A DNA stretch of 62,617 nucleotides, the filler included, from Basidiobolus ranarum (taxonomy: Eukaryota), in assembly GCA_040143965.1 (NCBI GenBank). It is 13 parts of 13 records of this genome, joined end to end, with 100 filler letters (N's around TTAATTAATTAA, not from the genome) between each part and the next. Parts side by side here need not be neighbours in the genome. Positions count along the whole stretch, not along the records: positions 9,683 to 14,416 come from JASJQH010001845.1; 12 more parts are not named here. One strand, given 5' to 3'. The notes under the pieces were generated by a model. It worked only from the letters and a program-made list of their open reading frames with translations. It was not told where the DNA came from and searched no databases. The translations under genes were made by a program, and so were the position numbers. This document shows positions 4,843 to 57,200 of the stretch, piece after piece. The first letter of the stretch is position 1. Each line of letters opens with the position of its first letter.

Positions 4843-7571
4843 CAAAAGGCATGGTGCCAAGAAACATGCCGTAGGGAAGAACTGAAAGGAGAGTATACGC
4901 AAAGCTAAAGAATATTTTCAAATAACAAAATGTATTGTGCCAAGAAACACGCCTTATGGGAAGCACTAAAAGGAGAGTATACGCAGTGCTAAAGATTACT
5001 GTCAAATAACAAGAGGTATGGTGCCAAAAAGCACGCCGTATGGGAAGCACTTTAAGGAGAGTCTACGTAGAGCTAAAGAATACTGTCAAATTACAAATGG
5101 TATAGTGCCAAGAAATCATCGGTATGAGAAGTACTAAAAGGAGAGGCTACTCAGGGCTAAAGATTACTGTCAAATAACAAAAGGTATAGTGCCAAGAAAC
5201 ACGCCGTATGAGAGGTACTGAAAAGACAGTATATTCAGAGCTAAAGAATACTGCCAAATAACGAAATGTATGGTGCCAAGAAACGCGCCGTATGGGAAGC
5301 GCTAAAAGGAGAGTTTTCGTAGTGCTAAAGACTTCCTACATATGATGATGGGAATGGTGCCAAGAAACACGCCGTATGGGAAGCACTAAAAGGAGAGGTT
5401 ACGCAGTGCTAAAAGATACTGACAAACGACCCAAGGTATGGTGCCCAGAAACAGGCGGTAATGGAAGCACTAAAAGGAGAGGCTGATCAGTGCTAAAGAG
5501 TACTGACCAGTAACAAAAGGTATGGCGCCCAGAAACACGCCGTATAGAAAGCACTGAAAGGAGAGTATACGCAGAGCTAAAGAATACTGTCAAATAACGA
5601 AATGTATGGTACCAAGAAACATGCCGTATGGGAAGCGCTAAAAGGAGAGTTTTCGTAGTGCTAAAGACTGCCTATATATGACGATGGGAATGGTGCTAAG
5701 AAATACACCGTATGGGAAGCACTAAAAGGAGAGGTTACGCAGTGCTAAAAAATGCTGACAAATGACGCAAGGTATGGTGCCCAGAAACAGGCGGTAATGG
5801 AAGCACTAAAAGGAGAGACTGATCAGTGCTAAAGAGTACTGTCAAATAAAGAAATAGATGGGGCCAAGAAACACGCCATATGGGAAGCGCTAAAAGGAGA
5901 GTCTTCGTAGTGCTAAAGAGTGCCTACATATGATTATGGGAATGGTGCCAACTAATAAACGTTATGTGACACGCTAAAAAGAGAGTCTACGTAGAGCTAC
6001 AGAATACTGTGAAATGACGAAATGTATGGTGCCCAGAAACACACCATATGGGAAGCACTAAAAGAGGAGTATATGCAGAGCTAAAGAATACTGTCGAATA
6101 ACGAAATGTGTGGTGCCAAGAAACACTCCATATGGGAAGCACTAAAAAGAGAGGCTACGCCGTGCTAGAGATTACTGTCAAATAACAAGAGGTATGGTGC
6201 CAAGAAACATGCCGTATAGGAAGCACTAGAAGGAGAGTCTACGTAGATCTACAGAATACTGTCCAATAACAAAAGGTATGGCGCCAAGAAACACGCCGTA
6301 TGGGAAGCACTGAAAGGAGAGTATACGCAAAGCTAAAGAATATTGTCGAATAACGAAATGTGTGGTGCCAAGAGACACGCCGTATGGGAAGCACTAAAAA
6401 GAGAGAGTATACGCAAAGCTAAAGAATATTTTCAAATAACAAAATGTATTGTGCCAAGAAACACGCCATATGGGAATAGTATATATAGTGCTAAAGAATA
6501 CTGTCAAATAACAAAATGAATGGTGCCAAGAAACTCGTCGTATGGGAAGCACTAAAAGGAGAGGCTACGCGGTGCTAAAAAATACCAACAAACGACGCAA
6601 GGTATGGTGCCCGGAAATAGGTGGTAATGGAAGCGCTAAAAGGAGAGGCCGATCAGTGCAAAAGAATACTGTCCAATAGCAAAAGGTGCGGTGCGAAGAA
6701 ACGCGCCATATGGGAAGCACTGAAAGGAGAGTATATGCAGAGCTAAAGAATACTGTCAAATAAAGAAATATATGGTGCCAAGAAACACCCCATATGGGAA
6801 GCGCTAAAAGTAGAGTCTTTGTAGTGCTAAAGAGTGCCTACATATGATTATGGGAATGGTGCCAACTAATAAACATTATGGGACACACTCAAAGGAGAGT
6901 CTACGTAGAGCTACAGAATACTGACAAATGACAAAATATTTGGTGGCCAGAAACACACCATATGGGAAGCATTGAAAGGAGAGTATATGCAGAGCTAAAG
7001 AACACTGTCAAACAACAAAATATATGGTGCTAAGAAACACTCCATATGGGAGGTACTAAAAGGAGAGTCTATGTAGAGCTACAGAATACTGTCAAATAAC
7101 AATGGTATGGTGCCAACAAACACCCTGTATGGGAAGCACTAGAAGGAGAGTCTATGCAGAGCTACAGAATACTGTCAAATAACAAAATGCATGGTGCCAA
7201 GAAACACACTCTATGGGAAGCACTTCAAGGAGAGGCTATGCAGCACTAAAGATTACTGTCAAATAACAAAAGGTATGGTGCCAAAAAACATGCCAAATGG
7301 GAAGTACTATCAGGAGAGTCTATGTAGAGCTAAAGAATACTGTCAAACAACAAAAGGTATAGTACCCAGAAATCAGTGGTATGGGAAATACTAAATGGAG
7401 AGGCTACTCAGTGCTAAAGATCACTGTCAAATAATGAAACGTAAGGTGCCCAGAAACAGGCCATATGGGAGGCACTAAAAGGAGAGTCTTTGTAGTGCTA
7501 AAGACTGCCTAATATGACTGTGGGAGTTGGGCCAAGTGACAAACTTTATGGGACATACTAAAAGGAAAGTC
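4843..7571. repeat. Tandem array of an 84-bp unit, about 33 diverged copies, truncated on the left by the contig end
   Basis: Anchor GTGCC recurs at 4937, 5021, 5105, 5189, 5273 and onward; approximate consensus TGGTGCCAAGAAACACGCCGTATGGGAAGCACTAAAAGGAGAGTATACGCAGAGCTAAAGAATACTGTCAAATAACAAAAGGTA. Confidence 0.97.
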
Positions 7572-8780
7572 AAAATCTCTGTGATTGATGCATCTTAGCT
7601 CTAGTTTACAACAATGACAGTCTTCTCAGTTGATCTTGCACCAATTATTTGAGTGACAAAAAACTAACACAAGTATTATTATTCTCAAGTACCTAATAAT
7701 TATAGGAGGTTAAGTGAGCTAGTATTGTATTCACAAAGATTGGACTGCAGTTTATTGACAGAGATACTCCTTTGTTTATACTTAGACTTATAGATTAGAT
7801 GAGTCATGACTCACCCACTGATTACTATATCTGTATTTAGCTTCATCACAATGAGTTGCACAGTGCTTGGCCAAAATATCCTAGGCCAGCATAGCAATCA
7901 GCTGATATATATGGGAGGCACAGTCAAGATGATCATGTGACCAACTAACAAGGAAGGGATATGAACAAGTGACCTCCCAAGGAATATGATCATAAGACTA
8001 TCATGTGACCTAGTACAACTAACAACTGTAACATCATATGAATGCTGATTAATACTTAGTGATATCTGAATAACTGATGGTACTGATAATACTGATCTGG
8101 GGATTATACCAATATATTGATAATACTTCATATTGCATAACCTTACAAACACTCAAGCTGCTATGAGTAGCTAATCATAGCACATGATTGTTTAGCTGGT
8201 GCAAAGAATATGGTGGATGTATCACAGTTGAACAAGCAATAACAACTTTACAGAGCATCACAGCCATCAGAAAGTAGTTGAGGGATGATGTGATGGCTAG
8301 GTTGAACTATCAAATAAATAACAGAGTTATATATGGGTCAATTACACTATCCACACCAACACCAAGCTAGTATTCCAGTCACATCAATCATGGAAGTTCA
8401 GATCTTTAAGCATAATTTATATAAATGTGACATCATACAGGAATACCAAATCATGTTGATGATTGTTGTAGATTGCTTAAATCATAACTCTTAATGAAGA
8501 CTCAACAAATTGAAATTAATCAAACACCTTGCGCAAAATACACATTCCATTTCATCAAGGCTAGGATTGTGGCTACCTTAGCCAATGGTCAAGAGTGAGT
8601 GTGCATTTTTGTTTAAGAATTTTGCAGCCAATAATCTTTGTTACAAACAGATCAACAACCATTGTGGATGGCTTCAAAGACTGCAATAAAGATATCGCAA
8701 TCATGTTGACTCTTACATTGTTGACTGCTTATGGCTGATATGCTCATTTACAAGCAACTTTGTGCATGGTGTTGAGGAAC
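7572..8780. mobile_element. TE-like DNA interrupting the array: an LTR-like segment ending CCTTACA at 8147 and a possible gypsy integrase relic at ~8330-8500
   Basis: CpG-depleted; repeated ATCATGTGACC; weak MLMIVVDCL similarity to the gypsy integrase motif ILVVVDRL. Confidence 0.4.
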
Positions 8781-9582: not shown

Positions 9583-9682
9583 NNNNNNNNNNNNNNNNNN
9601 NNNNNNNNNNNNNNNNNNNNNNNNNNTTAATTAATTAANNNNNNNNNNNNNNNNNNNNNNNNNNNNNNNNNNNNNNNNNNNN

Positions 9683-11617
9683 CCAGTAGATTTCGAAGTA
9701 TGCAAAACTTTCGTTGTCGAATGAGCCGATCACTGGAATAACATGCTCGTCATTAAGAATAGTGGAAAGATAATTTCTTTGATGCTCAATAGGTCCATCT
9801 TCTCCCCAGAATTTAGAGACTCTTGGGTCATTCATCCACTTATGTAAATGCTCTACATCCTGTTCCATATTAGCTACTCTGAAAGAGATGGTTTGTCCAA
9901 GTGCAGAGATGTGTCGACGATACAACATTTGACCGGAGGATGGTCTAGGTACGCGAGTAGGGTGAGCTCTATTTTGATCCTGAGATACGACTTGATCCAC
10001 TGAGGGACCACAGTAACGAAGGCAGCCAAAGTTAGCATTGTTCGAGTCAACACCATCAATCCACTGCCACATTTGATCCTCAGTAGAAGGAGTGAGAGGT
10101 CTTGTAGATGGAGGAGATGGCAACGAATCACAAGTTTCTGACTTGTATCTGTCCACGCCGTGCTTACCACCGTTTATTTGTAGTGCAGATGTCAGCTCCT
10201 TTTCTAAAGATTTTGATGAGGATGACCTATCAAGTTCAGTGTCGTGTTCAATCAAAGATTGGACAACCTCAACACCTCTCACTGGAAGGACAGAGAGAAG
10301 TGAGTCACTGAGGCCGTGAGTATTTTCGCAACATCCTTGAAGGTAGATACCAGCACGGCATTTGGGGTCGGTAAGAACTCGATAATCCCTCTGAATGATC
10401 ATTTGGGAATTTTCATCGGTAGTTAGATAAGACTCCATAGGACGAAGGATTTCTTTGTGAAGGCGGCGTTGATACCCAGTTGCAAAGAATACCGCATCGA
10501 AACTTTGTTCAATTTCACCATTTTCTTGATTGAGCTCAGAATCGTCGGTGCTTACCAACTTCAAAGTGATGCTGTCTTCAGAAGGATCTACGGTGAGAAC
10601 TCTACGCGAGTGAAGGATATTGTGCTGCTCTGATTGACCAGGAAGCTTTTGTTTGTATAAAAGAGCATAGATTCTTTCAATGAGTTCAATACGTACTACC
10701 GAATAGTTAGTAGCTTTCTCACGCTTGAGAGTGGCCTGGCGTTTTTCAGTTGGCATATTATAAAAAGTGTTGGTGAATGAAGGATCGAAAATCTCGTTAA
10801 CAAAAGGACTATCATCTGATGGACGCAAAGCGGTATCACGCAAAATAAGGGACACACGAGAGTTAGGATAACGATTGGTTAAATCGTAGAAAATCTCCGC
10901 TCCACTTTGACCGCCACCAACTACGGCGATTGAGTAAGGGGCATCCTTATCGGAAAGTGTCTTAGACACGCGATATGCGTATTGAGATGAATGAATGATG
11001 CGATGGTTATATTCAAACTCCTGGTCGCTTTTAGAGGTGATCAAATCTGGGATACGAGGTTGACCTCCTACAGCCACAACCACATTTTTGGCAATGCGGA
11101 CAATATTCACACCATCTGCAAGTCTTTTTGACGTAACCTTCAAACGCTCTACTTCTTGAGTATCCTCTGAAACAATAGGCTCAATTGCGATAACCTGCTC
11201 TCCAAAACGGCAAACGTCAGTAAAATGAGAAGCAGCCCAAGCCATGTAGTCATTATACTCTGCGCGATAGGGGTAGAAAGATCCTAAGTTGGAGAATGCG
11301 AGAAGTCTGTCCTTTTGGTGGAGATAGTTCAAAAAGGTATAGTAGCTTCTAGGGTCACGCATAGAAGCAAGGTCCTTCAGGAAGCTGATTTGCATTTTAG
11401 AATCATCAAGAAGCATTCCTTCGTGCCAAATAAAAGTGGGTTGCTTTTCGACAAAGCAAACTCGGAGATTCTCTTGAGAAAGCTTCTCACTCTGCCCATT
11501 CTTCGATACGCCTTCTGCTTCAGCCAGTGTGATGGCAATGGAAAGTCCGGCGGGACCGAAACCTACACACAAAATATCGTATTCATGGTTATCATCATGT
11601 TCGTATCTCTCAGCCAT
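9683..11617 (-). CDS. sidA: L-ornithine N5-monooxygenase fused to a hydroxyornithine acyltransferase (SidL/SidF/IucB/AlcB-type GNAT); 3' end truncated by the contig end
   Basis: SidA motifs DILCVGFGPA, WHEGML, MQISFLKDL, VVGGGQSGAE, DDSPFVNEIF, ATNYSVV, FATGY and HGLSDSLLS; then a Ser/Pro-rich linker; then HPTRVPRP...LYRRHI...SFRVA...LHKWMNDPRVSKFWGE...FAYFEIYW; one uninterrupted ORF. Confidence 0.95.
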
Positions 11618-11689
11618 GTTTGTGTAGTTATAAGATCTGCTCGAAGATAAGAGATGGTGAGAATGGGTATTTCAACTCTAGAAATTGGA

Positions 11690-12040
11690 AGTTTATATAT
11701 CAGATTCGATGGAGCAATTCAGAGTTTCACGCGAGGGTGAGGGAATGAACGACCAATTCTAAATGAGTAAGTTACACACTGCCGATTGTATATTATCGTT
11801 CTTGGGTCGGGGCAGATAGTGATGATATGTATTAAGGTAGCAAAATTTTGAATCCAATTTCCTAAAACACCATCCAGGCTAATCCGAAATATACAGCTTG
11901 ATATCAGATTCTTTCATTCGCCTGTATAATTATATCACCTAATACCCTACACCTCGTACAAATATCACCATTTATCTGATCCAAGTGACGCTTGATTCAA
12001 GAAAACTATAGTGATCTAAACCATGACAAATCTGATAAAC
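11690..12040 (-). promoter_or_regulatory. sidA promoter with SreA/Urbs1/Fep1-type iron-repressor GATA sites
   Basis: ATCWGATAA at 11972-11980 (-) and 12030-12038 (+); ATCTGATAT near-matches at 11697-11705 and 11901-11909; TATA-like ATATATAAA at ~11692-11700. Confidence 0.75.
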
Positions 12041-13712
12041 TTACCAAATTCTCGTTACTAATTAATCAAGCTGCATACCCCACCCAATCATACTCTTACG
12101 CTATTCGTAACTCCAGTCGTAAACATGGATCCATGTGCAACGAATAGTGTCTTCGCTATGGATCTGCGATGGTGATGAGAGGCGAGATTGCCAAACAGAT
12201 ATATTTCTTTATGATTTATTAAAACGATGGATCTACAGCAATCCTAGCCTATGCCTGATGCGTTCCGATGGTGCTCAAGTGTCAGCTCAGAGCAAATTTT
12301 ATCAGCTCTTCAGTTGTCTAGCTCTGTTCCTATTCGTGGAAAAATGACCCGCTTCAGTGTGTGCTATATCCGCGATCTTCAGTATGAATATAGAGTACGC
12401 CGGATAAAAGCTACTATTAGCTGCAGTTTCCTTATACCCCATTGCCCATACCATAAACGATCAACCAAAGCATGTCTCCATTTGTGATTAACTGAATCGT
12501 ACCAAAAACTCAGCTCAACAACCTATGCCAACTTATTTCCAGCAGTAGTCAGGTCTAGTTAGTTGGGGCCGCGGCGAGACTTTAATCTCCCAGTTAAGCA
12601 TCATATCCTCGGGATAGTACTGTGATGTTGACATTCGATGTATGACTGAATGGCATGTAGCGATACCTGCTTAAATGAACCAAAGAGACAAGTTTTTCCT
12701 GTGTACATAGCGTACGGGAGGTATGGAAAGGTGAGGTCCCATAAAATTTTCAATGATATCTTGCTGCCCACTACTTGGTGTGGTAAAGTACCTTGGCAGT
12801 CAAGTATAACCAAAATGGTACGTGTAGTTGACGCTGTTACTGTTTAGAGTGTGAATCGGAAGTCAATTCTTCGTGAAAGTAAAGCACATTTCTTTAATAT
12901 CTAAAGCCAACGAAAAAACCTGTTGAGATCTGGAAACTATTTCATCAACGGTAGGTAATATTGACATCTTGAATACCTTAAATCCATACATCTCGAGGGG
13001 CAGGTCTGTCCCATATAGACAATCTATATTGATAGCTGACTACTGATTTATCTAAAGACACGCATAGCATGTATAACGGATACCGCACGCATGCCCCACC
13101 ATTTTATGACGATTTAATAAAATCATGCCTTTGTCACATTCTGTGATACTTGCCAGGCTTCAAAAATTTCCGGCGAAGATCGCCATTGAAGAAAGGCTTT
13201 GGTCACTAACTTCATACGAATTCTCTCAGGACACCTGGGCTAATAATGTAAAAATCTATACATGAAATAGAGCACAATTATTTCATTTCTCGTTGCTCTA
13301 TTAGAACTACATAAACACAAATGTTGAATCTTGGTTACCTCTCTCATTAGGAGTTTGAATGGATACTACTGCTAACCAGACTACCCTTTAATCATGCTCT
13401 TTAGCTATATTTACCTGAGCAAATGTCACTCATCAGACCATTACAAGCACTGATTATCGTTGATATGTCGTGAGACAAGCTTTCTCAGTGCATTCAGGAA
13501 TTTCCTTCGAGAACGTTACCGCATGTGCAGTGCTCAGGTCTATTGAGGCTATGTTAGATTAGGAAATACTCCGTACCAGAGAATCGACACTTTTAGGTTT
13601 AAAGTGAAAACGTGCTTCGTACTGGTAGTCCATGAGCAAAAAGACCCACAGAATTTCCTGAACCGAAGCGAAAAGAACATTTCCTAACAAACACAGGAAT
13701 GGTGCATATTGA

Positions 13713-14337
13713 ATCTGATAAAAAATGTAAAAGAAATTAATAGCTTGGATTTGACTTTAGGACAGGTTTGTTGTTAGATTGACTTAGTTCTTGCAAATCA
13801 TATCTAGTTCAGCACCCATTTGATCAGTCCAACTCCTCGTTTCTAGCTCCCCACAATGTATGAATCCAAGACTGAGCGAGAGTGAATCGGATATGGGTTA
13901 ATCTTAACCAAATATGGCATGAATTCACCGGTATCTTGCAATCGGTGAAAATATGTTGAATATGGACTGCATCACTCTTACTTAGATTAGGCCAGATCAT
14001 GGTGCCAAGCTATAGGTGTATAGTCACTTCAACGATGATCCACAAATGACGACGTACCCTGTTTTGAAGCCGAATGCAGAATCAAAGCCATTTGAGTGGC
14101 TATATGATTCATCGCATATGGCTCAAGCCATTTAGTGTTGAATAAAACTGATAACCGTTGTCAATTTACCAAATATGGGTCAATTCTCCCGAGTTGCCAT
14201 CTTTGTATCATTAGGCTAATGGCTGATCCAAAGTAAACTTATCAGATCAAATTCCACGAATTGTATCACACCTGGCTGTACTACATTATTGTATGTATAT
14301 GTATTAAAAGTTCTATCAGAAATCCGGAATCTGATAT
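13713..14337. promoter_or_regulatory. Second cluster of ATCWGATAA-type sites
   Basis: ATCTGATAA at 13713-13721 (+) and 14239-14247 (-); ATCTGATAT at 14329-14337. Confidence 0.55.
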
Positions 14338-14352
14338 ACCTGCTTGACTCCC

Positions 14353-14415
14353 GGGGGGGCGCGGTGGGGGGATGGGGCGGGGGGGGGGGGGGTGGGGGGC
14401 GGAGGGCGGCGGGTG
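14353..14415 (+). repeat. G-rich tract at the contig end (G-quadruplex potential or low-quality sequence)
   Basis: Several long G runs that end the contig. Confidence 0.6.
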
Positions 14416-14516
14416 TNNNNNNNNNNNNNNNNNNNNNNNNNNNNNNNNNNNNNNNNNNNNTTAATTAATTAANNNNNNNNNNNNNNNNNNNNNNNNNNNN
14501 NNNNNNNNNNNNNNNN

Positions 14517-17500
14517 CTGCAATGATTTTCCAGAAGTACCAGCACCAATAACTTCTAGTATGTATTCAGCGGGATTCTCCGACTGATCGCAGTGACGAGC
14601 ACCATTACGTTCAAAATATTCGTTCATTACCACCGAATTTTCACCGATATCTCCAAAGTAAGCTACCTTACCACCACGGGCAAGTAGTAAGAGTCGATCA
14701 AAGTGCTCAAATAAAATGGAAGAAGGTTGATGGATGGTACACACTAAAGCCATACCAGAATCCGCAAGCTTGCGAATAAATTTGATGATATTGTAAGAAG
14801 ACTGTGAATCCAAACCAGAGGTAGGCTCATCCAAAAACAAGATGGTCGGCTTTGCAACAAGCTCCATACCAATCGTTAAGCGTTTACGCTCTTCTACTGA
14901 AATTCCGACTCCCGCCTCAAGCATACCAATAAGTGCATCTCCTAAATGTTGCATTTCCATCATTTTCAAGACAGTTTCGACATACTCGTACTTCTCCTCT
15001 AACGGAACTTCCATAGGTTGACGCATTTTAGCTGAGAATTGTAAAGCTTCACGAACAGTCAAATAGGGATTATGAACATCCATTTGTTCGACATATCCAG
15101 TGATACGTTCAAAATCTACATTTAGGGCATTTCCGTTCAAGAAAATATCTCCCTCTATAACGCCAATGGTTTTTCTTTTGGCAAGTACATCAAGCAACGT
15201 GGTTTTACCAGCACCAGAAGAGCCCATAAGGGCGGTCATCTGTCCTGGCTTGATCCAACCTTCACAGTTGTTTAGAAGTTGCAACTTTCCACCTTGGAAA
15301 GGAACAGTATAATTAACACTGTCCCAAGTAAATATTCCAGCTTCAGCAGCAAAGCTGTTACCCATATTGTCATAGGCTTGTTGAGCTTCTTGGACCCGCT
15401 TTAGTTCTTCTTCATCGGAGTGAATAGGGGCTTTTCCGGCTTTGTAAACCTTTTTAACAAACCCACCAGTAACCCAGTTTATCTTTTCCATGGCAAGCAT
15501 ATTGCAAGCTACAAAGAATAACCAAAAGAGGAGTACAGCAATAATATCGACGCTCATTTGTGAGGATATGTATCCATAGGCAGCTTCAAGGTAGGCCTCC
15601 CCTGTAACAAATAGTTCACCAGGTTTAGCACCAGCAAGAACACAGACCTGATGAGCTGCATCATCATAACCTGGTCCACTAGGTGCCAAACCTAAAGGCG
15701 GAACGCACGGGAACTTAAGTCCACGCATTTCGTTGGTGAACAAGGCTTTAAAGGCATAAGCATAGGGATCGATCCAATAAATCCAGTATAACTAGAAATG
15801 TCGTTGGAATTTAGTATTGTTCGTTATTTGAAAATAACTCCACGAGAGAAAATACGTACCCAAGGATGCATCTTATTATATGGAATGGAGTAACCGCAGT
15901 ATGTAATTAGCGTAATCAGGCATATGCCTGTGAGCTGGAATGCAACAAAAATCGAAGGACTACAATTGCCGAGTAATCTGATATTACGACGAATCAAATA
16001 TAATGAGTGTTAGTTCAGCGTGATTTCAATGGAAAACGCGATGTTCCTTACCTGAAGAGATCTGTCGTAGTTAAGGTTATCAAAACATTGGTAAACAAGA
16101 AAACGAAGAATTTACCGGCATCTCTGTCCAAACCAAACATGAAATATGCAATTATTGAATACATCAGGCACTGGACAAACACAATGGGTATATCTGTAAC
16201 CACACGAGCGATGTGAAATGCTGATGGATGATACATGGCGTAGGATTTATGTTTTTGCAATGTCATACGACCTGCTAGAACGTTGGGTAATTCAGCTTGA
16301 GATAAAAAGGCATTGAATAGAAGAGAACTCAGGAGTGCGCCACCTCTTTGGAAGGCACCAGTAGAATTCAGACTCATCATGTAAAAAACAGAGCCGTAGA
16401 CGAAACCTTGGATTAAGACGGAAAGGTAGCGCTCGTATAGTGCATGCTTGTCTCCCCATAAGATTTGGAATTGACGTATAGTAAGAGCAATCACTTGTTC
16501 GTAGAAATTGGTAGAGTAAACACTGCTATTGGGGACACCTCGCTGTTTAATTTCTTTTACATATTCTTTGAATTCGGCTGCAGGTTGTTCCTTTTCTATC
16601 CTAGCCTCATAGTCGCTCATGTTTTGAAGTAGAACCTTATAATCTTGAGATTCCTGGAAATATCTTTCGAATTCTTCTGGGCTCTCTGGCACTTTGCCTT
16701 CGAATCCTTCAACAACAATACGTTCATTTGGATTTGTAATGCCAGTCAGGAAATCAGGAATACTCTTTCTTGGCTCACAGGTGTAGCCCATCTCCATGAA
16801 ATAATCTTTTGCCCGATCTCTTGGCCCAAAGAAGATACAACGACCCAGATAAAGCAACATGACTTTATCGTAAAGGTTGTAAATACTATCAGAAGCCTGG
16901 TATAGTGTAGAGATTGTGGTTTTGTTCAGTGAATCGCATTGAATACGAAGCGATTTATTGTAATCCAGGGCACTGGCGGAGTCGAGGCCTCTGGTTGGAC
17001 AATCCCAAGTTGCGATCGCACTACGAGCGGTCATCGCTTCGGAAATGGTCATACGTTTTCTCTCACCACCCGAAAGTCCTCTTACCCAGGCGTTACCAAC
17101 AAGCTGAGAGATTAAAAGGAATCCTGTTTAGAAGATGATGGTTCATTGCTTGTATATTTGAGATAGTACTTACGGTATTTTCTTGCTTCTTTAAACCAAA
17201 GATTTTCAACAGCGTATTCATGAAATCTTCCTGGAAATCTCTACGGCTGATCCCAGGTAAACGGTGAGCCGGGGTCTTCATCTTTAATGCAAAACCCAGA
17301 GTCTCCTTGACAGTCAATTCTGGATAATGTGCATCTTCCTCCATACAATAAATGGCTTCACCGAGATATTTACCGAAATTTTTGGCAGATATACCGCCAA
17401 ATTTCACATCACCAGTGATGTCAAGAAATCCTTGTCTAGAGTTTGCAAGAACGCGTAGCAAACTCGTACAGCCAGAGCCAGGTCTACCTAGTACCAATAG

Positions 17501-24179: not shown

Positions 24180-25684
24180 CATCGCCCTTCCCAAAATAAT
24201 ATTATCATACAACGCATATTATCATCTTTGTTATTTGCAGTACATATTAAAATATCAAACCCTTGGTTTTATTTTTTGGAACCATCTATTTTGGAATAGC
24301 ACTTGTTGTGTACAAATATCAGTTTGCTTACGCTTATGTCAAGTGCTATGAAGCAAACGGAAGGATTTGGAAGTATATTTTTCGATACGTGAGCCATGGT
24401 CTCATTATATTTCAGCTTACAATGCTAGGCATTCTATCATTGAAGAATTCTTTTGTATCCGGTATGACACTGATACCATTGCTTGGATGTACTATCTATT
24501 TCATATATCATTGTCGAAGTACATATCGTGATCACACTAAATACGTACCCCTTGATGCTCTTTACGAACGTGAAGAGGCCATAGAAAAGATGCATTCCTG
24601 CACCTATCAAGCATCATCGCCTGATAATTCACAGCCTGTCAAGTCTAGTACCTCAGAGGGCGACGGAAAGCAAAAAGGAGTCACCTCCACATCTCTCCCA
24701 TCCGTAAGCAAATCAATCTCACCTCCAGTACCCACTGATGAAAATACCGTAGTTGCATCCAAGGAGAGCCGATTCAAAGCCACTGATTCCAGCATTCCGG
24801 GTATCTCCTTACCGAAGCGTCGTAAACACCATCCTGGCCCTTTGACAGAATGCTCTGTTGCAGGCACCTATCCCTCTTTGTCAGATGGTTCATTTAGCTA
24901 CAAGCATTTTGAGTATGATCCTAAATCCCCAGTCAAGCAAAAGTTGATCAAGATCCAACATCAAATCTTTTCTACCCCGTTGCTCTCACTTTTATGGCAG
25001 CCAACTGATGCTCATGAAAAGCTAATTGACAAGCACATTGACCCGAAGGAGGTTTTGGCTACTGCCGTACTTCCCAATAGAGAAATTTGTCAAGATGATA
25101 CTAATCCTTTCGAAACGTACCTCCATCCTGATCTAATAAGACCTTTACCTCGGTTTCTCTGGCTTCCTCAAAATCCCTTTCGTCATCTGTATGCTTTAGA
25201 TAGCGAGATGCGAGATTTAGACATGGCGATCACTTCATCCACCTTCGTACCTTCCACTTTGGGAGGTGATTCTAGTCTTGGTTTTGGTGACCGAGCTATG
25301 GCCACTACGCGACGAAATCGCCCTTCGCGCGAAGCTCACACAGCCAATAGACTTCCATTTCTTTTCAACTCCGTTCGTTCGATGGCTAGTAAATCTCTCG
25401 CTCCGCAAAGCTCGTTTGAGGTTTCTAAATTCCAGACAGATCCCTCGGAAGTATCTGGATCTACAGCTAGTGCTAGAAGTAGACCTGCCTCTGGTTTGAT
25501 GGATCTCATTCGCTCGTTCACTTCGAAGGTTACATTAGAAGAGGAAAACATGGGTGGATCACGCTCCATAAGTATGGCCGAATTCCCTGATCAATACAAC
25601 GATGGACCGTTAAGTGAATACGGCTCGAGAGTTGATGAAGAGTATTCTCCTAGAAGCTCTATTTCCAGTGGAAGGAGCGAATAA
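24180..25684 (+). CDS. C-terminal part of a CSC1/OSCA/TMEM63 (RSN1_7TM) channel, 5' truncated
   Basis: IIFVICSTY..IKPLVLFFGTIYFGIALVVYKYQFAYAY...E.NGRIW, IIFQLTMLGILSLK, YVPLD and YLHPDL..PLP.FLWLP; two in-frame TAA in the first 70 bp of the contig. Confidence 0.85.
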
Positions 25685-30467: not shown

Positions 30468-31325
30468 TCATGGCTTTAAATTTTCCCGTAACTCCAAGTT
30501 AGTTTTGGTTTTGCTCTGGGAAGCATGACTTCTTTTACGATGCTTGATTTTTTGCGCGAATTTTATCAGTTTACTGACTCCAAATATCTCTTTTAGTGAT
30601 GGTATATCTTCTTGAATAAATTCTGTTGATGGTGGAGAATTGATTTCCTGTGGATCATTTTGGCTGACAGAGAAGAACTTCAGTTCAGCTTCGGGAACAG
30701 AAACGATTTCTACAACTGGGAGTTTAGAGGAGGTAGTGAAAGTTGCGTTGTCCCAATCTGGATCCTTAGTTTTATAGTTCGATTCTGTAGCCTCAAGTGA
30801 TTTAAGCCGAAGGTACACTTCTTGATAATTCACTATTTCTAGTGGAATATAGAGAGATCGTCTAAGGTGAAGATTATCGGACCATAGCTTATTGATTCTT
30901 TTCAATCCATCGGTGGTCACGCCGTACAATAAAGCAATCCCTGCTAGGGTATCAGTATTTTTAATACGATGAACAATCACGCGTTTTTCTAGTATATCCA
31001 GTGGCAACGATGAAGATGAGGAGAAATGAGAAGAAAGCGCGTCTTCTATCTCGGATGCAATATCATCTTGAGTCTTTTCACGTCTGATAGGCACAAAAGG
31101 AAACGAAGAGTTTAGCAATGGGTCGGTTAGGGCTTCAATAGTGTTTTGACGCCGTAATGGACGGTGTTCAGTCTTAGCAGGTGCGAAGTAACTAGGCTGG
31201 AAGGTGTTGGGTTGGAATGGTTGGTGTTCAAGTACACCTGGCTCCATAAAACCTTGGAACTCTGAGTCATTCACCAAGTCATGAGAAAAATATGATGCTG
31301 GGAGGGTTACCGCGGCGCACATCAT
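30468..31325 (-). CDS. LysM-domain protein without signal peptide (LysMD1/2-like)
   Basis: HRIKNTDTLAGIALLYGVTTDGLKRINKLWSDNLHLRRSLYIP. Confidence 0.88.
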   Translation of the reverse strand: MMCAAVTLPASYFSHDLVNDSEFQGFMEPGVLEHQPFQPNTFQPSYFAPAKTEHRPLRRQNTIEALTDPLLNSSFPFVPIRREKTQDDIASEIEDALSSHFSSSSSLPLDILEKRVIVHRIKNTDTLAGIALLYGVTTDGLKRINKLWSDNLHLRRSLYIPLEIVNYQEVYLRLKSLEATESNYKTKDPDWDNATFTTSSKLPVVEIVSVPEAELKFFSVSQNDPQEINSPPSTEFIQEDIPSLKEIFGVSKLIKFAQKIKHRKRSHASQSKTKTNLELRENLKP

Positions 31326-33623
31326 GTATATTCTTTCAGAGTTGGAAAAGTAAGGAGTGGGGCGGTCATATCATCGTGCACAACTTCGCTTTATATACCT
31401 TTGCAGAGCGCAATATGAACTATAGATGGAGTATATTGGGAGATCTGGATCTCCATAAATAGATCAATACAATAGAGTAGATCGAAACTGAATGGATTTT
31501 ATTACAACTTTGTAGTATTGTCCACAGATCTTTCCATTCGCCCCACCAGTTGAAGATGCTCAGAATAAGCTAATATATAGTGATGCTAATCTAACATGAT
31601 GAAGCTTACTGGAGAGTTTATTTTATGATTTAAAAGGATCCTCTCCCACCAACGAAAACTGAGACCAGTAAACAATATCTTACAGTGGCCGAAGCATAGA
31701 TTTGGAGGAAAACTTGCTGATCGGTATTAGCTGTTTCCTTCCCCAGACATAAAAATATGATCAATATAGCAATGTCTCTTGACCAAAAGCACAATAGAAT
31801 ACTCATTGAGAATGGCGTGCCTTTTCTTGACTAGGCCTGGATCACATGGTGAATCCAAGATTGGGAGAGTATTGGGCCAGGTATAGACCGACTACCCGAA
31901 GGCGTCGTAAGACTTGATTGAAATATTCCTCAAACCTATCAAGATTACCATATGTCGCCAATGGTTTAGATTGTGGTATGCTTTAGATCACATGTGCTGA
32001 CTCGTAGGATAGTGGAAATGCCAAAATTAACATGAAGCAACGTGTTTCAACGGATTGAAATGGGACTACTGTTTTGGGAGTTGAAGGTTCCCTGTTTGCC
32101 ACATCACAGGTATCCATCTGACAAGTGATGATGGGTTCCTGATGTTATTCAAGAATAGGTAAGGGATTTAGTAATGGCATAAGATTCACATCAACCGATA
32201 TATTTATTCAGATCTCAATGCTAGCTCATTCCCCAAAGAAGATTTACAGAAGAAACTCTAAACTATGATTAAGGTTACACGAGACTGAGACATTGTCTGA
32301 CCCGTTAAGCTTAAACTTAGTCATCGATTGTATAGATGAGTGTGCGATTCAAAGCATAAAGGTTAAACTCCAATAGAGCCAATGAAAGTCACCATGCTGC
32401 CTTCCACCAATCATCGCGGGACAATCCTAATCTCGTCAGTACAATACGTGCCCTCTTTTGGCCACTATGCACTTCTGAATCAGTTTGATTTCGTCCCTGC
32501 TTCTTAAATGACCAGCTATGAAATTCTCAGATAAGGGTCCGGCACTTCCCATGGAACCAAGTTCGGTCATATATTAATTCAATCATTCTGACTGACAAAT
32601 CGGTAACGAATCATATCTTTTGATAGAATAGGCTACGGTTGATGACTCCTTCCATTTGGTACTGACTTTATGGACTTATTCTAATTCATTCTAAATGATG
32701 CCACAAACCGTATCGCTGCAACAAACGGATATTTCCGACGATTAGATAGTATGAGTCGTTCATGTTTGACTCCTATCTGCGACTTTGTTCAAAATCCATC
32801 CATCTCAAACTCATATAGTTGCAATGATCCTTCTACTTCGTGTGTATGAAGCGTTCACCGATTCTAGCCAATTAATGCAAAGGATTCTTGGCCTGAGTGA
32901 TATACTGATCGGGTTGTTATCATTACCATGTGCAGCATGATTAACTACTGCAATACTACTTGCTGGTATAGCATCGATAAAGGTGATATCTATAAGATAA
33001 AGCAATACTCTACTAAATGGCGATAACAATCTATTATAAGCTGGTTCTTTTTTCTAATGCAATAATGTATCGTACCGACCCAAAGCAGAATCTCTATTAC
33101 TATCTCAGTAAGGATAATGACATTTGTTGTAAGTTCCCTCTGCTCCATTCAGACTTGGGATCCAGAATGATACGCCGGATCATTCGTGCTGCTCAAATTT
33201 AATAATTGATTTGATTTTGTTCAAGTTTGCCCATTATATAATTTATCATTATTGGTGTGTTTATCATAATCGCCACTCTTGTATTCAATACATAGATATT
33301 ATTTTAGTTGTAATCAATATTGGATTAATACCACATATGCATCAAGCAGTTGGAATACCAGAGTTATGCACTTAAATGAGTGGCTGTCGAAATATTCAAG
33401 CTAAACACCATTGTTTTATATATTGTTAAATATATCAATAAAAGTATTTATGAAGAAATTTTGATCTGGCCAGGAACTGAGCATGGAACTGGCTGAAATG
33501 CTGAACTCTAACATATAGATATTAATACACCTTGTTCAACATAGTTAATGAGTAGCTACTTATTACTTCCATACATATGTTTAGGATTTGTTCAGAATCT
33601 TGAAGAAAACAAAGGTGATTTTT

Positions 33624-34809: not shown

Positions 34810-36234
34810 ATGTCTGAGAAATTGGGTCCTCAAGAGAAATTCGATAGCTCGGATCACTCGGTGGAGTTGAACGATAATGGTCATGAAGTAGGCCATGTCT
34901 CCAACTTCTCCACCTACTTCAATATTGTGTAAGTAATTCTTTACAAATTGCCCTCTTCAAATCGTGTTCTTACATTGTGCAACCTTCATGCTAATAGGTG
35001 TGTTATTGCTGGAACTGGTGTGCTTCAAATGGGCTATTCGTTCACTCAGAGCGGTTGGTTTGCGAGCATCATTACTGTACTATGTTGCTTGTTATGTATC
35101 TATACAGGGCACCTTATTATCCTCTGTCTTTACCACGACAAAAAAACTCGCCTAAGTGGGTATAGTGCAGTTGGTGAAGCTGCTTTCGGCAAACCAGGCT
35201 ACTATATTGTACATGGATTTACCCTTTGGTTCTACTTTGGTGTTGGATGTATTTTTATTATGTTGATCGCAACGAATTTGAAAGAATTGGTCGACTATGC
35301 TGGAGCGAGTATCAATCTGAAAGTATGGACCATAATATCCACCGCCATTATCTGTATTCCTTTCATCCTGTACAAGACTATGAAAGAAGTACATCTTCTT
35401 GCGTAAGTTGAAGAAATCTCTATAGCCCAATATTGAGTAGCCAGCTAACCATGATTTTTCATTCGGTACAGTGTCTTTGGTGCTCTATCAACCCTCTTCA
35501 CCGTTATAGTGATTGTTATTGTTGGATTATCAGATCGCAACAAGTTTTCAGAAGCCTCAGGACATGACAATACAGGCCATAAGTTTGTTATTGCTTCCGG
35601 TCTCCCTATTACATTGGCCTCTATTAGTCTGTCATTTGGAGGTAGCCCAGTCTTTCCATCTATCGAGAAAACTATGCGCAGTCCAAAGGCTTGGACCCCT
35701 GTCCTCACTCTTGCTATGCTTACCACATTGATTATGTATATGGCTGCTGGTGTTTTCAGTTACTTGTCTTATGGACAATCCACTCAATCTCCAGTTTTCA
35801 ATAGCTTTGAGATGACTGGAATTACCATCGCTGCTCGCATTGCCATCACCCTTCATATTATCTTTGCTTCACCAATCCTATTAATCACCTTCGCCCTGGA
35901 CATAGAAAAATATCTTCACATCGATCGTGAGCATATGGGCAAGTGGAAAGAATTTACATTCCGGGTGTTGCTAAGAGCCGCTTTGATGGTTATTTTCTGT
36001 CTAGTGTCGATGTTTGTTCCAGCCATTGGTGACTTCATGTCGTTGATTGGGGCGCTAATGAACACTCAAATTATCTTCGTTTTCCCAGTAGCATTCTTCC
36101 TGAAGCTATTTGGATGGAGAAATGTTGGTTGGGTTCATTTGGTGCTCTGTGCCCTCACCATGGTTGTAGGATGGTTAAGTTGTGTTATCGGTACCATTGA
36201 TTCCATCAAAAACCTAATCCACAGTCTATCCTGA
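34810..36234 (+). CDS. AAAP/Aa_trans amino-acid transporter (AVT1-like); introns 34929-34997 and 35403-35471
   Basis: YFNIVCVIAGTGVL, Y..VGEAAFG, SFGGSPVFPSIEKTMRSPK, YLSYG and FMSLIGA; multiple transmembrane segments; GT-AG introns keep the frame. Confidence 0.94.
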
Positions 36235-53664: not shown

Positions 53665-54279
53665 TTACGAAACTGTCGTGATCGATGAGTTGGATATTAC
53701 AAAGCTTTGATGGCGACAATCTTTGGCACCACCGTTGAGATCCTGTCCTTGTTCAGGGATGACAACCTGTTTGGCACGGAATTCCATCACGGCAGACCAA
53801 TATTTGTCTAGAAATTGGCTCCACGCATCAAATTCGTCTTCATCTATTTTGATGTTCCAACCAAACGTTGTCAAAACAGCGAGTTCCATTTGAGATAACT
53901 GGGTAACATTCAACCCTGATACTTGTGCCCAACTACGATTGGAATAACATTTATCCTCATGGTATTTGTTGGCGAGAATAAGGGCAACAACTGCGATGTA
54001 ATACTCTGAGCCCAAAACCTCGAGTGAAAGGGGTGCGGTTTCCTTATATCTGTAAATGTAGTTGAGCGCAATTCTTAATGTGGAGGTAGAAGGTTGAGTT
54101 ATTTGGAACAGCCGGGAGCAGAAACTATGGAAAGCTGGAGAAGCACCATAGGGATCATTACTCCACATATGATACACAACATCAGCAAAAAAAGTAGCTA
54201 GGCAGTCAGGGGTTTTGACCTTATAAGAAGGTTTAGCAGGAACACAATGGATAGGTAGTCGAAGTTGGGCGCCGGGCAT
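53665..54279 (-). CDS. Pho85-type cyclin (Clg1/Pcl-like), about 204 aa from MPGAQLRL
   Basis: Cyclin box F..FCSRLFQITQPSTSTLRIALNYIYR, VALILANKYHEDKCYSNRSWAQVSGL and QMELAVLTTFGWNI. Confidence 0.9.
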   Translation of the reverse strand: MPGAQLRLPIHCVPAKPSYKVKTPDCLATFFADVVYHMWSNDPYGASPAFHSFCSRLFQITQPSTSTLRIALNYIYRYKETAPLSLEVLGSEYYIAVVALILANKYHEDKCYSNRSWAQVSGLNVTQLSQMELAVLTTFGWNIKIDEDEFDAWSQFLDKYWSAVMEFRAKQVVIPEQGQDLNGGAKDCRHQSFVISNSSITTVS

Positions 54280-57200
54280 AATGTAAATAGAGCTTAAATT
54301 ACAAATGTGCGAAAGAAGGAAAATGAGAGTAGGGTCAAGCCAGGGGGTGATGCGTAGTAGATCAAGTGGTGGTTGAGTAGGATAGTAGGAAGATATGTTT
54401 GTCAGCAGCGTGGATTTGCAACTTATAAGCAAATTGGAATAGAAAAAAATCGACGTATCGAAGAAGAATTGTCCAAAATTAGAAATCAGAGTATGGGAGT
54501 ATACAGAGTTGCACAAGACTAGTTTGATACTTGCCACTTATGGACCAGTGATTAACTTAAAGATAAGTATAACTAATAGTATAAATTTAGCCACCTTAGG
54601 AGCTGTGACTTTGATTATTGGCTGCAGCGGTGGACTTTCAACGATTAAAGTGGTTCTGTGAATGCAACAGGCGATGACACTGAATCAACCTATCTCACTT
54701 GATTCTGAAACTTGTCTCATGATGAGCTGACCATCCGTTCTCTTGCCCTTTCAGCTGATCCATGACAAAGAGAAGCCTGTGGACACACTGCCATTTAGAA
54801 TGCGTAAGAATAGCAACTAGTTGCAGATCGCTACCACTCAATCTACCTCTTTTGGGGCTTTAACCAGCCACACGTATAAGGATTTGACTGCGCTCTACGG
54901 CTTGTTTGTTCTGTTTAAGGGAAGATGTTTATATTTGCCTTGCCTGGACACCAGGGCGAAACAAAGAGCTGTGCTACTGACTAGTGCACAGCATCAAATC
55001 CATTGATCCCTCATTACTTACCAGTTGAGGCTGCTTTTACCCCTTAGAATGAATTCTCATTATCCAGGGTGATCTCACAAGCTGTAAATGTAAATGGCAG
55101 ATGGAGCTCTCGAACCTTGTGCTGTCGGTCATCCGCCCCGAGATTCAATAGGCTTAATTAAGGTACAACTAATAGTGGAATTCGCATACAAACATCGAGG
55201 AGCGAAGGGATCTGAGCAGTAATGCTCTAGGATCAAATTCATCTCCGCCAATTGGCTAGCCCGATGGGCCTGAATATCAGTCTCATTCCACAGTTCCCTG
55301 ATGCAAGCCAGAGAAGAGGCCTTGCTATAATAGGTTAAGGCGAGCTCTCATCACCCTATGCGCAAATAAATAACCTTCTCTCACTATGCTGATGGCTTGG
55401 GTGCTCTCTTGTCATGTGATACAAGCGTTTTCGTAATGTCGCTGTGACCTCTATCCGACTCTTCCATTACACTAGAATCACAGGCAAGACTCTATTGTCA
55501 TGGACAAAGAGGAGACGACGGATGACGTGTTTGACCATTACGTATATCGCTGATCCGAGCCAAGCGAGGCCAAGTTTACGTCAAGCTCCCTTAAAGCCCT
55601 GAGGATCCCAAGTATTATTTACCGATCTTCCAGAATATTAATACCGGGATTGCATCAGCAAGCTCGAAAGGAATGATGGCGATTTTTCACACTTACAAAG
55701 CACATGAGGTGATAGGCCAAGCGGAATGAGACGAGGGATTTTCATTTGAGGCGAAGAATATCCGATGCCAAACTGATACCAGTAGCCAGATCATGCATAT
55801 GTATTGATTGGATTACTCTAGACCTTGGGCAACCTTGAATTCGGAATTCAGCATTGCTATTCCGCAATTGCTCTGGGAGAGGCGATCCAGATAATCCGTG
55901 TTACAAGAATTTGACAGTAGTTCGTGTTATCCGATATATGCTCGGTATACTAGGACTCTAGAGTGACGGAATTAATGGCAGAACTGATCACAACCAGGAG
56001 TTGCCGAATCCAGTTAAGATGTAATTTGCTCTTTGACGGCTCCTTAGTTCCATCTCTTTGTCCTGAGAGAACGCATTATCAATGCCTAGTCAGGGCTATT
56101 GCTGAAGCGTGCATTGTAACAATTATGAGCTCCGAACGGAGAGTGCATAATCTGATCAGAGATCTGGTATTTGATAATTCCATCATCTAAGCGCTGTGGC
56201 GAATCAGGCTTGCAAAGCTGCCATATGCTGAAGTCATCCAGGTCTGGTGAGTTAATAGGGTTTGTGACGAGGATGGATATCATGTGAGAGCAAGCGAGCT
56301 AGTGGGGATTGGATTCATCCTGTCACTCACAATCAGTGTAGATCACGAGTGGATGGGACTGTAATCCAACACCGTTCTAACTGTTAGGTTTTGGTTGGAG
56401 CAATCATCGAGTCTCGTGCGTGAGTAAGATGAGCGCTGCCACATTTGACCGTCCTGCTGATCCAAGATAAGGTTAGAGAACTATATCAACAACCTATAAG
56501 CAGCATGTGGGTTTTACTTGCCTGGATTGTCTTCAAGTCAGCCAATCATCTACTTTTGGCAACCAAACACTTTATCAGCGCCCTCTTGCTGGATGGTTTA
56601 CTATTGATAAGCACATGACTATTCTGATGGCATCAAATCAGTCCATCTGCTTGGTAGCTCAGGTGCTCTACTTAATCAGTGTGACTACCATTACCACTAC
56701 CAGCTCATAGCCATTTATTTACCATTACCGCTCTCGGTATCATCGGTACGATGATGTAATCGTGAATGGGCTATCGATTTAATCTACTAGTGGTCTATTT
56801 TTAGCCAAATAGAGTAGCTGATTTAGGCATTCATGGATTAAATTCAATTCAGAGTCTAATTCCTCTGGAGTGCTGTTAAGGATAGTACAAGAACGTGTGA
56901 ACCGAATGTACAGTCTAAACACCGCATGACGATATTCAACCCAAAATGTCTTATTTACTCTGCTTACAGTCACTAGAATTGGATAACTTTAAAGGTTCTA
57001 GGTTTCAATGGTGGTTCTTAAAAGACTATGCTGAGAAATTTGGGATGAGCTAACCTTAGATCGTGTCTATTACGGTTGGTTAAACTTGAATGTATCAATA
57101 CCGATACTCCCTACTTTAATTGATCTAGGTGTCCATAAAGCAACATAGATTGCAGCAGAGAAATGCACCAATACTTATATGTATCTGCTATCATATCCAG

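Follow-up and report, generated by a model that had tools for sequence, protein, structure and literature searches.

The locus considered here raises the question of whether the first two steps of hydroxamate siderophore synthesis, the N5-hydroxylation of ornithine and the acylation of its product, can be combined in a single fungal polypeptide. It lies on the minus strand at positions 9683-11617 of a stretch of 62,617 nucleotides (the window) from Basidiobolus ranarum (assembly GCA_040143965.1), a member of the Basidiobolomycota and not of the Mucorales. Fungal hydroxamate siderophore synthesis is taught as a trait of the Dikarya with separate SidA and SidF/SidL enzymes, and Schizosaccharomyces pombe encodes the two steps separately as Sib2 and Sib3. 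In the current study, we have detected a coding fragment in which a predicted SidA-type monooxygenase is followed by the start of a GNAT acyltransferase, and we consider it likely that this fragment belongs to a genuine B. ranarum gene whose product would be a bifunctional enzyme for siderophore precursors, the gene having been cut short in the assembly. Our verdict, reached by sequence comparison, is that it represents a real, conserved and apparently undescribed family of predicted bifunctional enzymes.

The window is an artificial chain of 13 small contigs of 4.71-4.74 kb, ordered by descending size. The contig bearing the fused gene occupies 9683-14416 (4,734 bp), and the 2.8 kb upstream of the gene are its sole genuine genomic context. 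The gene and its immediate border are laid out as follows.

9683..11617, minus strand: fused monooxygenase/acyltransferase coding fragment of 645 codons, with the ATG at 11617 and the 3' end cut by the contig end
10241..11587, minus strand: predicted SidA-type flavin-dependent L-ornithine N5-monooxygenase domain, residues 11-459 (Pfam, phmmer)
9956..10240, minus strand: inter-domain linker of 95 residues (460-554), rich in Ser, Asp, Thr and Pro, between the SidA-like and the SidF-homologous parts
9683..9955, minus strand: first 91 residues (555-645) of a predicted GNAT acyltransferase of the SidF/SidL/MbtK type, with PF13523 at residues 584-645 (9683-9868)
9583..9682, no strand: artificial, non-genomic joint between two unrelated contigs, consisting of an N run, TTAATTAATTAA at 9627-9638 and a second N run

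From 11617 to 9683 the minus-strand frame contains no stop and then runs into N; it ends at 9683 without a stop codon because the contig ends there, and for the same reason about 100 C-terminal residues, the probable catalytic His included, are missing from the window. A single tblastn segment links positions 11593-9683 to residues 4-630 of a B. ranarum paralog, P0005, so that no intron is needed across the frame, and the window protein is collinear with the fused family up to its last residue. The initial annotation had described one intronless open frame with a SidA-type monooxygenase, a linker of about 95 residues and an AlcB-type GNAT domain, and had pointed to the profiles PF13434 and PF13523. 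This description holds in each of its parts, as the frame is open over all 645 codons, the domain borders agree (with the SidF-homologous part starting at about 9955), both profiles score above their curated cut-offs on the 645-residue fragment, and the same order of domains is present in the full-length paralog and in 12 named species.

The N-terminal part is predicted to be an L-ornithine N5-monooxygenase of the SidA/PvdA type on the basis of its profile, motifs, residues and clade. PF13434 (Lys_Orn_oxgnase) matches residues 12-383 over profile positions 2-338 of 339 (E 3.6e-107; 358.9 bits, with the cut-off at 21.3), and a phmmer search of the PDB places SidA nearest (residues 11-459, E 1.3e-121), followed by PvdA (1.1e-108) and the lysine enzyme MbtG (3.2e-87). 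No equivalog-level name was obtained from NCBIfam, where the best model was histamine N-monooxygenase with 187.5 bits against a cut-off of 700. Class B flavin N-hydroxylases are defined as a family by a GxGxxG motif binding flavin adenine dinucleotide (FAD), a GxGxxG/A motif binding NADPH and the motif D(x)4ATGY, and the window protein contains GFGPAG at residue 19, GGGQSG at 234 and DAVFFATGY at 374. In SidA, mutational evidence assigns the binding of ornithine to Lys107, Asn293, Asn323 and Ser469, and that of NADPH to Arg279 and Ser257 (PMC7347517). All six residues are conserved in the window protein, where K81, S238, R260, N274, N304 and S442 correspond to SidA K107, S257, R279, N293, N323 and S469, the numbering having been transferred through the 501-residue SidA of Aspergillus lentulus, which has the same residues at the SidA numbers. 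The six residues are also kept in 14 of the 14 fused rows that cover these columns, and a 15th, partial row lacks the first column only. Besides, the model of P0005 superimposes on SidA structures with template modelling (TM) scores, normalised to the target, of 0.86-0.89.

The linker that joins the two domains carries a W-x-W stretch (MWQWIDG, 10052-10072) and the sequence GCLRY (10013-10027), both common to the Basidiobolus paralogs. The AlphaFold2 model of P0005, with a mean predicted local distance difference test (pLDDT) score of 87.5 and a predicted TM score (pTM) of 0.69, places five beta strands in the equivalent region, with block pLDDT values of 59-93, which suggests that, in this paralog, the region is no floppy tether.

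The C-terminal part is matched by PF13523 (Acetyltransf_8) at residues 584-645 (E 2.7e-19; 69.7 bits, with the cut-off at 27); owing to the contig end, the match is confined to profile positions 2-63 of 145. P0129 of Basidiobolus meristosporus, labelled 'siderophore biosynthesis protein' by its source, shares 71% identity with residues 520-645 and aligns with residues 241-435 of SidF (PDB 7qf6; E 1.5e-53) and more weakly with BH2621, MbtK, Rv1347c and DfoC. Residues 536-723 of P0005 likewise match SidF (7qf6; E 6e-52). The motif DRGxH...RG of the catalytic half is nearly invariant in the relatives (H123, R132 and G133 of P0129) and lies beyond residue 645, thus outside the window; its His may be the counterpart of the essential His of Rv1347c. 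SidF and SidL have a non-catalytic N-terminal domain of their own of about 200 residues (bioRxiv 10.1101/2024.08.20.608788). This two-domain build was not found here, since the homology begins at SidF residue 241, at the catalytic C-terminal domain, and is preceded by the monooxygenase and the linker; the monooxygenase therefore occupies the place of the SidF N-terminal domain. With this arrangement, the GNAT part would act as a SidF/SidL catalytic domain, but the protein is no canonical SidF or SidL.

The architecture is not restricted to the window. Among the 120 best homologs listed, PF13434 and PF13523 occur together in 10, all of them from Basidiobolus or chytrids, namely one from B. meristosporus, the second B. 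ranarum gene P0005 (745 residues, on another contig) and the remainder from the chytrids Spizellomyces, Powellomyces (two genes), Phlyctochytrium arcticum, P. bullatum, Dinochytrium, Nowakowskiella and Thoreauomyces. A profile built from 12 fused sequences was compared with 1.84 billion representatives, giving 3,852 matches at E <= 0.001; from the best 150 of these, all 33 with at least 590 residues were assigned by Pfam. Eight of these 33 have the monooxygenase followed by the GNAT domain, adding Rhizophlyctis rosea, Chytridiales sp. JEL0842, Conidiobolus coronatus and one metagenome protein. The others are a fusion in reverse order (one, Lentzea flava), a double GNAT (one, Derxia), PF13434 with FMN_bind_2 (four: P0224, P0225, P0256 and P0268), the latter combination fused to a non-ribosomal peptide synthetase (NRPS; one, P0232) and the monooxygenase only (18). 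In total, the same continuous order is found in 14 other proteins, full-length or nearly so, from 12 named species (B. ranarum with its paralog, B. meristosporus, Conidiobolus coronatus and nine chytrids) and one metagenome. Public databases name these fused proteins only 'L-ornithine N(5)-monooxygenase' or 'hypothetical protein'.

Because the domain order recurs on a second contig of the species and in other species, we take the fusion to be real and not an assembly error. An assembly chimera of a monooxygenase gene and an acyltransferase gene could be imagined in so highly fragmented an assembly, but the junction, with its linker motifs, recurs in independent assemblies of other species as well as on the second B. 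ranarum contig, and the chance of such a chimera is close to nil.

A somewhat greater, though still small, probability attaches to the explanation that two adjacent genes give one protein each, owing to a promoter or start inside the frame or to an unrecognised intron containing a stop, with the open linker being incidental. The B. meristosporus ortholog is indeed annotated as two models, P0003 (454 residues, 'partial') and P0129 (217 residues), both of which list a longest contig of 44,552 bp, and the NCBI model of the window gene stops before the GNAT domain. This model, K7432_014927 (P0002; 582 residues), is 100% identical to the window protein over 580 residues; it then leaves the frame, and for this reason has no acyltransferase, ending in two unrelated residues, 'SL', which fits a gene-caller artefact at the contig end. 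Given this ending and the 'partial' flag of P0003, neither model speaks strongly for two genes, and the explanation further conflicts with the 645 open codons (at the base composition of the contig, the probability of 100 stop-free codons is 0.0023), with the conservation of the W-x-W and GCLRY motifs in the paralogs and with the continuous order in the 14 other proteins.

Separate trees of the two domains are mutually consistent. In the careful tree of the monooxygenase domain (49 rows, with seven long or partial rows dropped), the fungal sequences group in one clade (98/98) to the exclusion of the bacterial PvdA-like rows of Pseudomonas and Cupriavidus, and within this clade the 15 fused rows and five partial or monooxygenase-only models of early-diverging fungi form one clade (84/81), sister to the SidA clade of the Ascomycota (98/96). 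A quick tree of all 56 rows agrees with the careful tree, and a second quick tree leaves the three fungal groups as a polytomy. The careful GNAT tree (31 rows) joins the 15 fused rows and P0129 in one group (80/80), whose inner subclades largely match those of the monooxygenase tree. The simplest reading of both trees is one old fusion that was vertically inherited; it would be common to chytrids, Conidiobolus and Basidiobolus, the last of these having two paralogs. The trees that the initial annotation had proposed for each domain thus place the monooxygenase inside the fungal SidA clade and not among the bacterial enzymes, and the search across proteomes that it had also proposed shows the fusion to recur in chytrids, Basidiobolus and Conidiobolus. 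As for its remark that no characterised fungal example was known, we found no description in the literature searched, so that this part stands, but the architecture itself is widespread in these three groups in public protein sets.

The possibility that Basidiobolus recently acquired a bacterial siderophore gene by horizontal transfer deserves consideration, since secondary-metabolism genes of bacterial origin have been reported in this genus (Tabima et al. 2020, PMC7466969) and PvdA-type proteins of Pseudomonas (47-49% identity) are about as close to the window protein as ascomycete SidA. Nevertheless, the position of the monooxygenase domain inside the fungal clade, the presence of the fusion in Conidiobolus and chytrids too, the two domain trees agreeing on most subclades, and the finding of no bacterial protein with the monooxygenase-then-GNAT order among the 33 long matches of the best 150 of 3,852 (floor about 336 bits) make such a transfer exceedingly improbable. 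A bacterial origin of the fused gene is rejected by the monooxygenase and GNAT trees.

Within Basidiobolus, the window gene and B. meristosporus P0003 form a pair (100/99) that is sister to the pair P0004/P0005 (98/87), from which it follows that the duplication predates the two species. The window gene is 78-80% identical to its B. meristosporus ortholog, and the two branches are short (0.088 and 0.115). These values bear on the explanation that the window copy is a decaying or truncated duplicate, broken past the contig end, and that only the 745-residue paralog P0005 is functional. The 3' part is out of view, and the 4.7-kb contig carries 2.8 kb of upstream sequence poor in open frames, as might be expected of such a copy. 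On the other hand, the 645 codons contain no stop or frameshift, the six key SidA residues are intact, the GNAT model of the ortholog is complete with 217 residues, and regulator-like motifs are retained in the promoter. Decay is thus unlikely, slightly more so than the two-gene arrangement, and we continue to regard the window copy as a genuine gene cut by the assembly.

The two copies might differ in their location within the cell. The paralogs P0004 and P0005 end in -AKL, whereas P0129, orthologous to the window gene, has the ending -ESN and no peroxisomal targeting signal of type 1 (PTS1); a PTS1-like end is confined to the P0004/P0005 pair and was found in none of the other 11 fused proteins. 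The ending -AKL is the PTS1 of SidF (bioRxiv 10.1101/2024.08.20.608788). Because of these different endings the two copies may act in separate compartments, and we speculate that one of them may be peroxisomal and the other non-peroxisomal. A wider scenario, which we put forward tentatively and consider more doubtful than probable, is that the fused SidA-GNAT protein was the ancestral fungal form for hydroxamates, retained by chytrids, Conidiobolus and Basidiobolus, which would make ornithine-based hydroxamate siderophores with it, against the published view that chytrids have neither SidF/SidL homologs nor hydroxamate synthesis, and split in the Dikarya, after which the SidF/SidL acyltransferases would have gained their N-terminal domain; the Basidiobolus paralogs would then parallel peroxisomal SidF and cytosolic SidL.

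The region upstream of the gene points to a possible control by iron. In Aspergillus, ATCWGATAA is the consensus of the iron-sensing repressor SreA, a GATA factor (PMC10500206). Four of the five ATCWGATAA sites of the 62.6-kb window fall in the 2.8 kb upstream of the gene, where about 0.12 would be expected (Poisson 7e-6), and the shorter ATCWGATA has seven of its ten window sites there, four of them within 583 bp of the ATG. Two full sites lie 355-421 bp before the ATG. The sites are distributed as follows.

11698..12038, no strand: proximal ATCWGATA sites in the upstream region at 11698-11705, 11902-11909, 11972-11980 and 12030-12038, the last two being full ATCWGATAA sites
13713..14336, no strand: distal upstream sites from the motif search, ATCTGATAA at 13713-13721 and 14239-14247, and ATCTGATA at 14329-14336

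A SreA-like factor may thus act in Basidiobolus, and iron would probably repress expression through such a GATA factor. In the upstream region (11618-14416), no stop-to-stop frame longer than 82 residues lies wholly upstream of the gene and no recognised gene was found. A G-rich run is located at about 14380-14416, at the contig edge upstream of the fused gene.

Based on the homologies described above, we propose a theoretical scheme for the activity of the fused protein. The N-terminal domain, as a class B flavin monooxygenase, would convert L-ornithine to N5-hydroxy-L-ornithine with FAD, NADPH and O2. The C-terminal GNAT domain would then acylate the N5-hydroxyl-amine from an acyl-CoA, and the resulting N5-acyl-N5-hydroxyornithine would serve siderophore NRPSs as their hydroxamate building block. 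In the fused proteins the monooxygenase would substitute for the non-catalytic N-terminal domain of SidF. We infer both activities and the acyl donor from homology; the channelling of N5-hydroxyornithine from one domain to the other and the link to a ferrichrome-type NRPS, both suggested in the initial annotation, would be tentative extensions of the scheme.

Evidence from the genus as a whole is consistent with this scheme. B. meristosporus shows siderophore activity on chrome azurol S (CAS) plates (Tabima et al. 2020, PMC7466969), and according to the same study adenylation (A) domains of the SID clade of siderophore NRPSs occur in all Basidiobolus isolates and in Conidiobolus coronatus, and those of the SIDE clade also in Basidiobolus. 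The taxa with SID-clade A-domains, Basidiobolus and Conidiobolus coronatus, also carry the fusion, and the fused gene would furnish the missing precursor step for these NRPSs, one of which might be its partner. The words monooxygenase, ornithine and hydroxamate are never used in the main text of that study, as far as its text was available (PMC7466969). It could be argued that N5-acyl-N5-hydroxyornithine, or N5-hydroxyornithine alone, goes into a product other than an iron-scavenging siderophore, such as another non-ribosomal peptide, as ornithine N-hydroxylases also occur in non-siderophore pathways (KtzI is among the PDB relatives) and Basidiobolus has many NRPS genes, which belong to several clades (PMC7466969). 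However, fusion to an acyltransferase of the SidF/MbtK/IucB type is a signature of hydroxamate formation, the ATCWGATAA sites are enriched upstream of the gene, and the genus combines CAS-positive activity with SID-clade NRPSs (PMC7466969), which leaves such a product with a low probability, a little below that of a decaying duplicate. A siderophore precursor thus remains our preferred assignment.

Several observations nevertheless weigh against a bifunctional enzyme of this kind or against parts of the scheme. The catalytic half of the GNAT domain, with the His of DRGxH, lies outside the window, and the window copy is thus only presumably intact. The two B. meristosporus models, P0003 and P0129, leave room for a split form in that lineage, the fused clade includes four further rows of early-diverging fungi whose models are partial or hold the monooxygenase only, and the models of Chytridium lagenaria and Cladochytrium replicatum, which are not flagged as partial, show the monooxygenase only. 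Support for the fused group is moderate in both trees (84/81 and 80/80). With regard to iron control, the WGATAA core shows no enrichment in the window (125 sites against 134 expected), and the ATCWGATAA consensus is that of Aspergillus, the Basidiobolus factor being putative.

Comparison with known systems helps to define what is particular to the fused protein. Residues 11-459 align end to end with A. fumigatus SidA (PDB 4b63 and 6x0h), which belongs to the same fungal clade and shares the FAD, NADPH and ATGY motifs and the six mutationally tested residues, whereas SidA is a stand-alone enzyme of about 500 residues, is about 47% identical and lacks the 95-residue linker and the acyltransferase. 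The window GNAT is homologous to the catalytic C-terminal domain of A. fumigatus SidF, the N5-hydroxyornithine:anhydromevalonyl-CoA transacylase (7qf6), but where SidF and SidL carry their own N-terminal domain the fused proteins carry the monooxygenase and a short linker. The same two consecutive reactions are predicted as in the separate-gene pathways of A. fumigatus (SidA with SidL/SidF) and S. pombe (Sib2 with Sib3), which use two genes where Basidiobolus would use one polypeptide.

Among bacteria, the Lentzea fusion (P0164, WP_189253289.1) has the same two Pfam domains (PF13523 at 25-167 and PF13434 at 185-516) but in the reversed order, with the acyltransferase first and almost no linker, and is narrowly distributed. 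This 598-residue fusion is full-length in five of 38 related actinomycete loci (L001-L005, match 6001-7794: Lentzea flava, L. nigeriaca, L. waywayandensis, Lentzea sp. and one uncultured Actinomycetota metagenome-assembled genome (MAG)), the others matching one domain, and it is evidently an independent event. Erwinia DfoC (PDB 5o7o) and the NIS-synthetase-GNAT fusions (P0125 and P0126) also join the same GNAT family to a pathway enzyme, but the partner is an IucA/IucC-type synthetase and not an N-hydroxylase. The bacterial PF13434 + FMN_bind_2 fusions, e.g., P0225 of Pseudoalteromonas luteoviolacea, resemble the window protein in being ornithine/lysine N-monooxygenases with an extra C-terminal domain, which in their case is putatively FMN-binding and not an acyltransferase. 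In P0232, a gammaproteobacterial MAG protein of 2,336 residues, PF13434 + FMN_bind_2 is further fused to the A-C-A-T modules of an NRPS.

No description of the monooxygenase-then-GNAT architecture was found in the literature searched in full text. In a review of N-hydroxylating monooxygenases, as far as its text was available, the word 'fused' is absent and 'fusion' is never used for an enzyme fusion (PMC7347517). According to the available text of a 2024 preprint on SidF and SidL, no homologs of the two proteins were found in Chytridiomycota or Mucoromycota (bioRxiv 10.1101/2024.08.20.608788), and Gruendlinger et al. (2013; PMC3709128) list species, including oomycetes and the zygomycete Rhizopus oryzae and probably also chytrids, which they conclude to be unable to make hydroxamate siderophores. 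If our interpretation is correct, a one-protein version of the two steps in chytrids, Conidiobolus and Basidiobolus would place the origin of the pathway nearer to the base of the fungal tree, and its value would lie chiefly in questions of evolution, by pointing to hydroxamate siderophores in lineages from which they are said to be absent. The replacement by a monooxygenase would also constitute a natural experiment on the role of the enigmatic SidF/SidL N-terminal domain, and the protein would offer a compact two-step enzyme for N5-acyl-N5-hydroxyornithine. For the unexplained CAS-positive activity of Basidiobolus, the fused gene is a concrete candidate. The significance is limited by the fact that two well-known consecutive enzymes are joined, which is a common kind of event, that members have already been deposited in public databases, where they are named for one function only, and that a reverse-order fusion is already present in Lentzea.

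The remaining parts of the window are independent of the fused gene. The joints between contigs, each an N run, TTAATTAATTAA and a second N run, number 12 in the window against 0.03 expected by chance, and since they are artificial, features that flank a joint are no genomic neighbours.

Centres of the joints between contigs: 4787, 9627, 14461, 19294, 24124, 28952, 33775, 38597, 43417, 48232, 53044 and 57854

The remainder of the GNAT domain was absent from the other 12 contigs of the window in tblastn searches with P0129 and P0005, and scans of metagenome contigs with P0283 and with P0142 for genomic context found no encoding locus. Pfam gave unrelated domains in six of the eight other long open frames of the window and no match in two. 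On the adjoining but unlinked contig there are fragments of an ABC transporter of the PDR/CDR type on the minus strand at 14517-17127 (PDR_CDR, ABC_tran and ABC2_membrane), and other contigs of the window carry an RSN1_7TM channel fragment (24251-25684), a LysM protein (30468-31370), an amino-acid transporter (35455-36234) and a cyclin (53665-54537).

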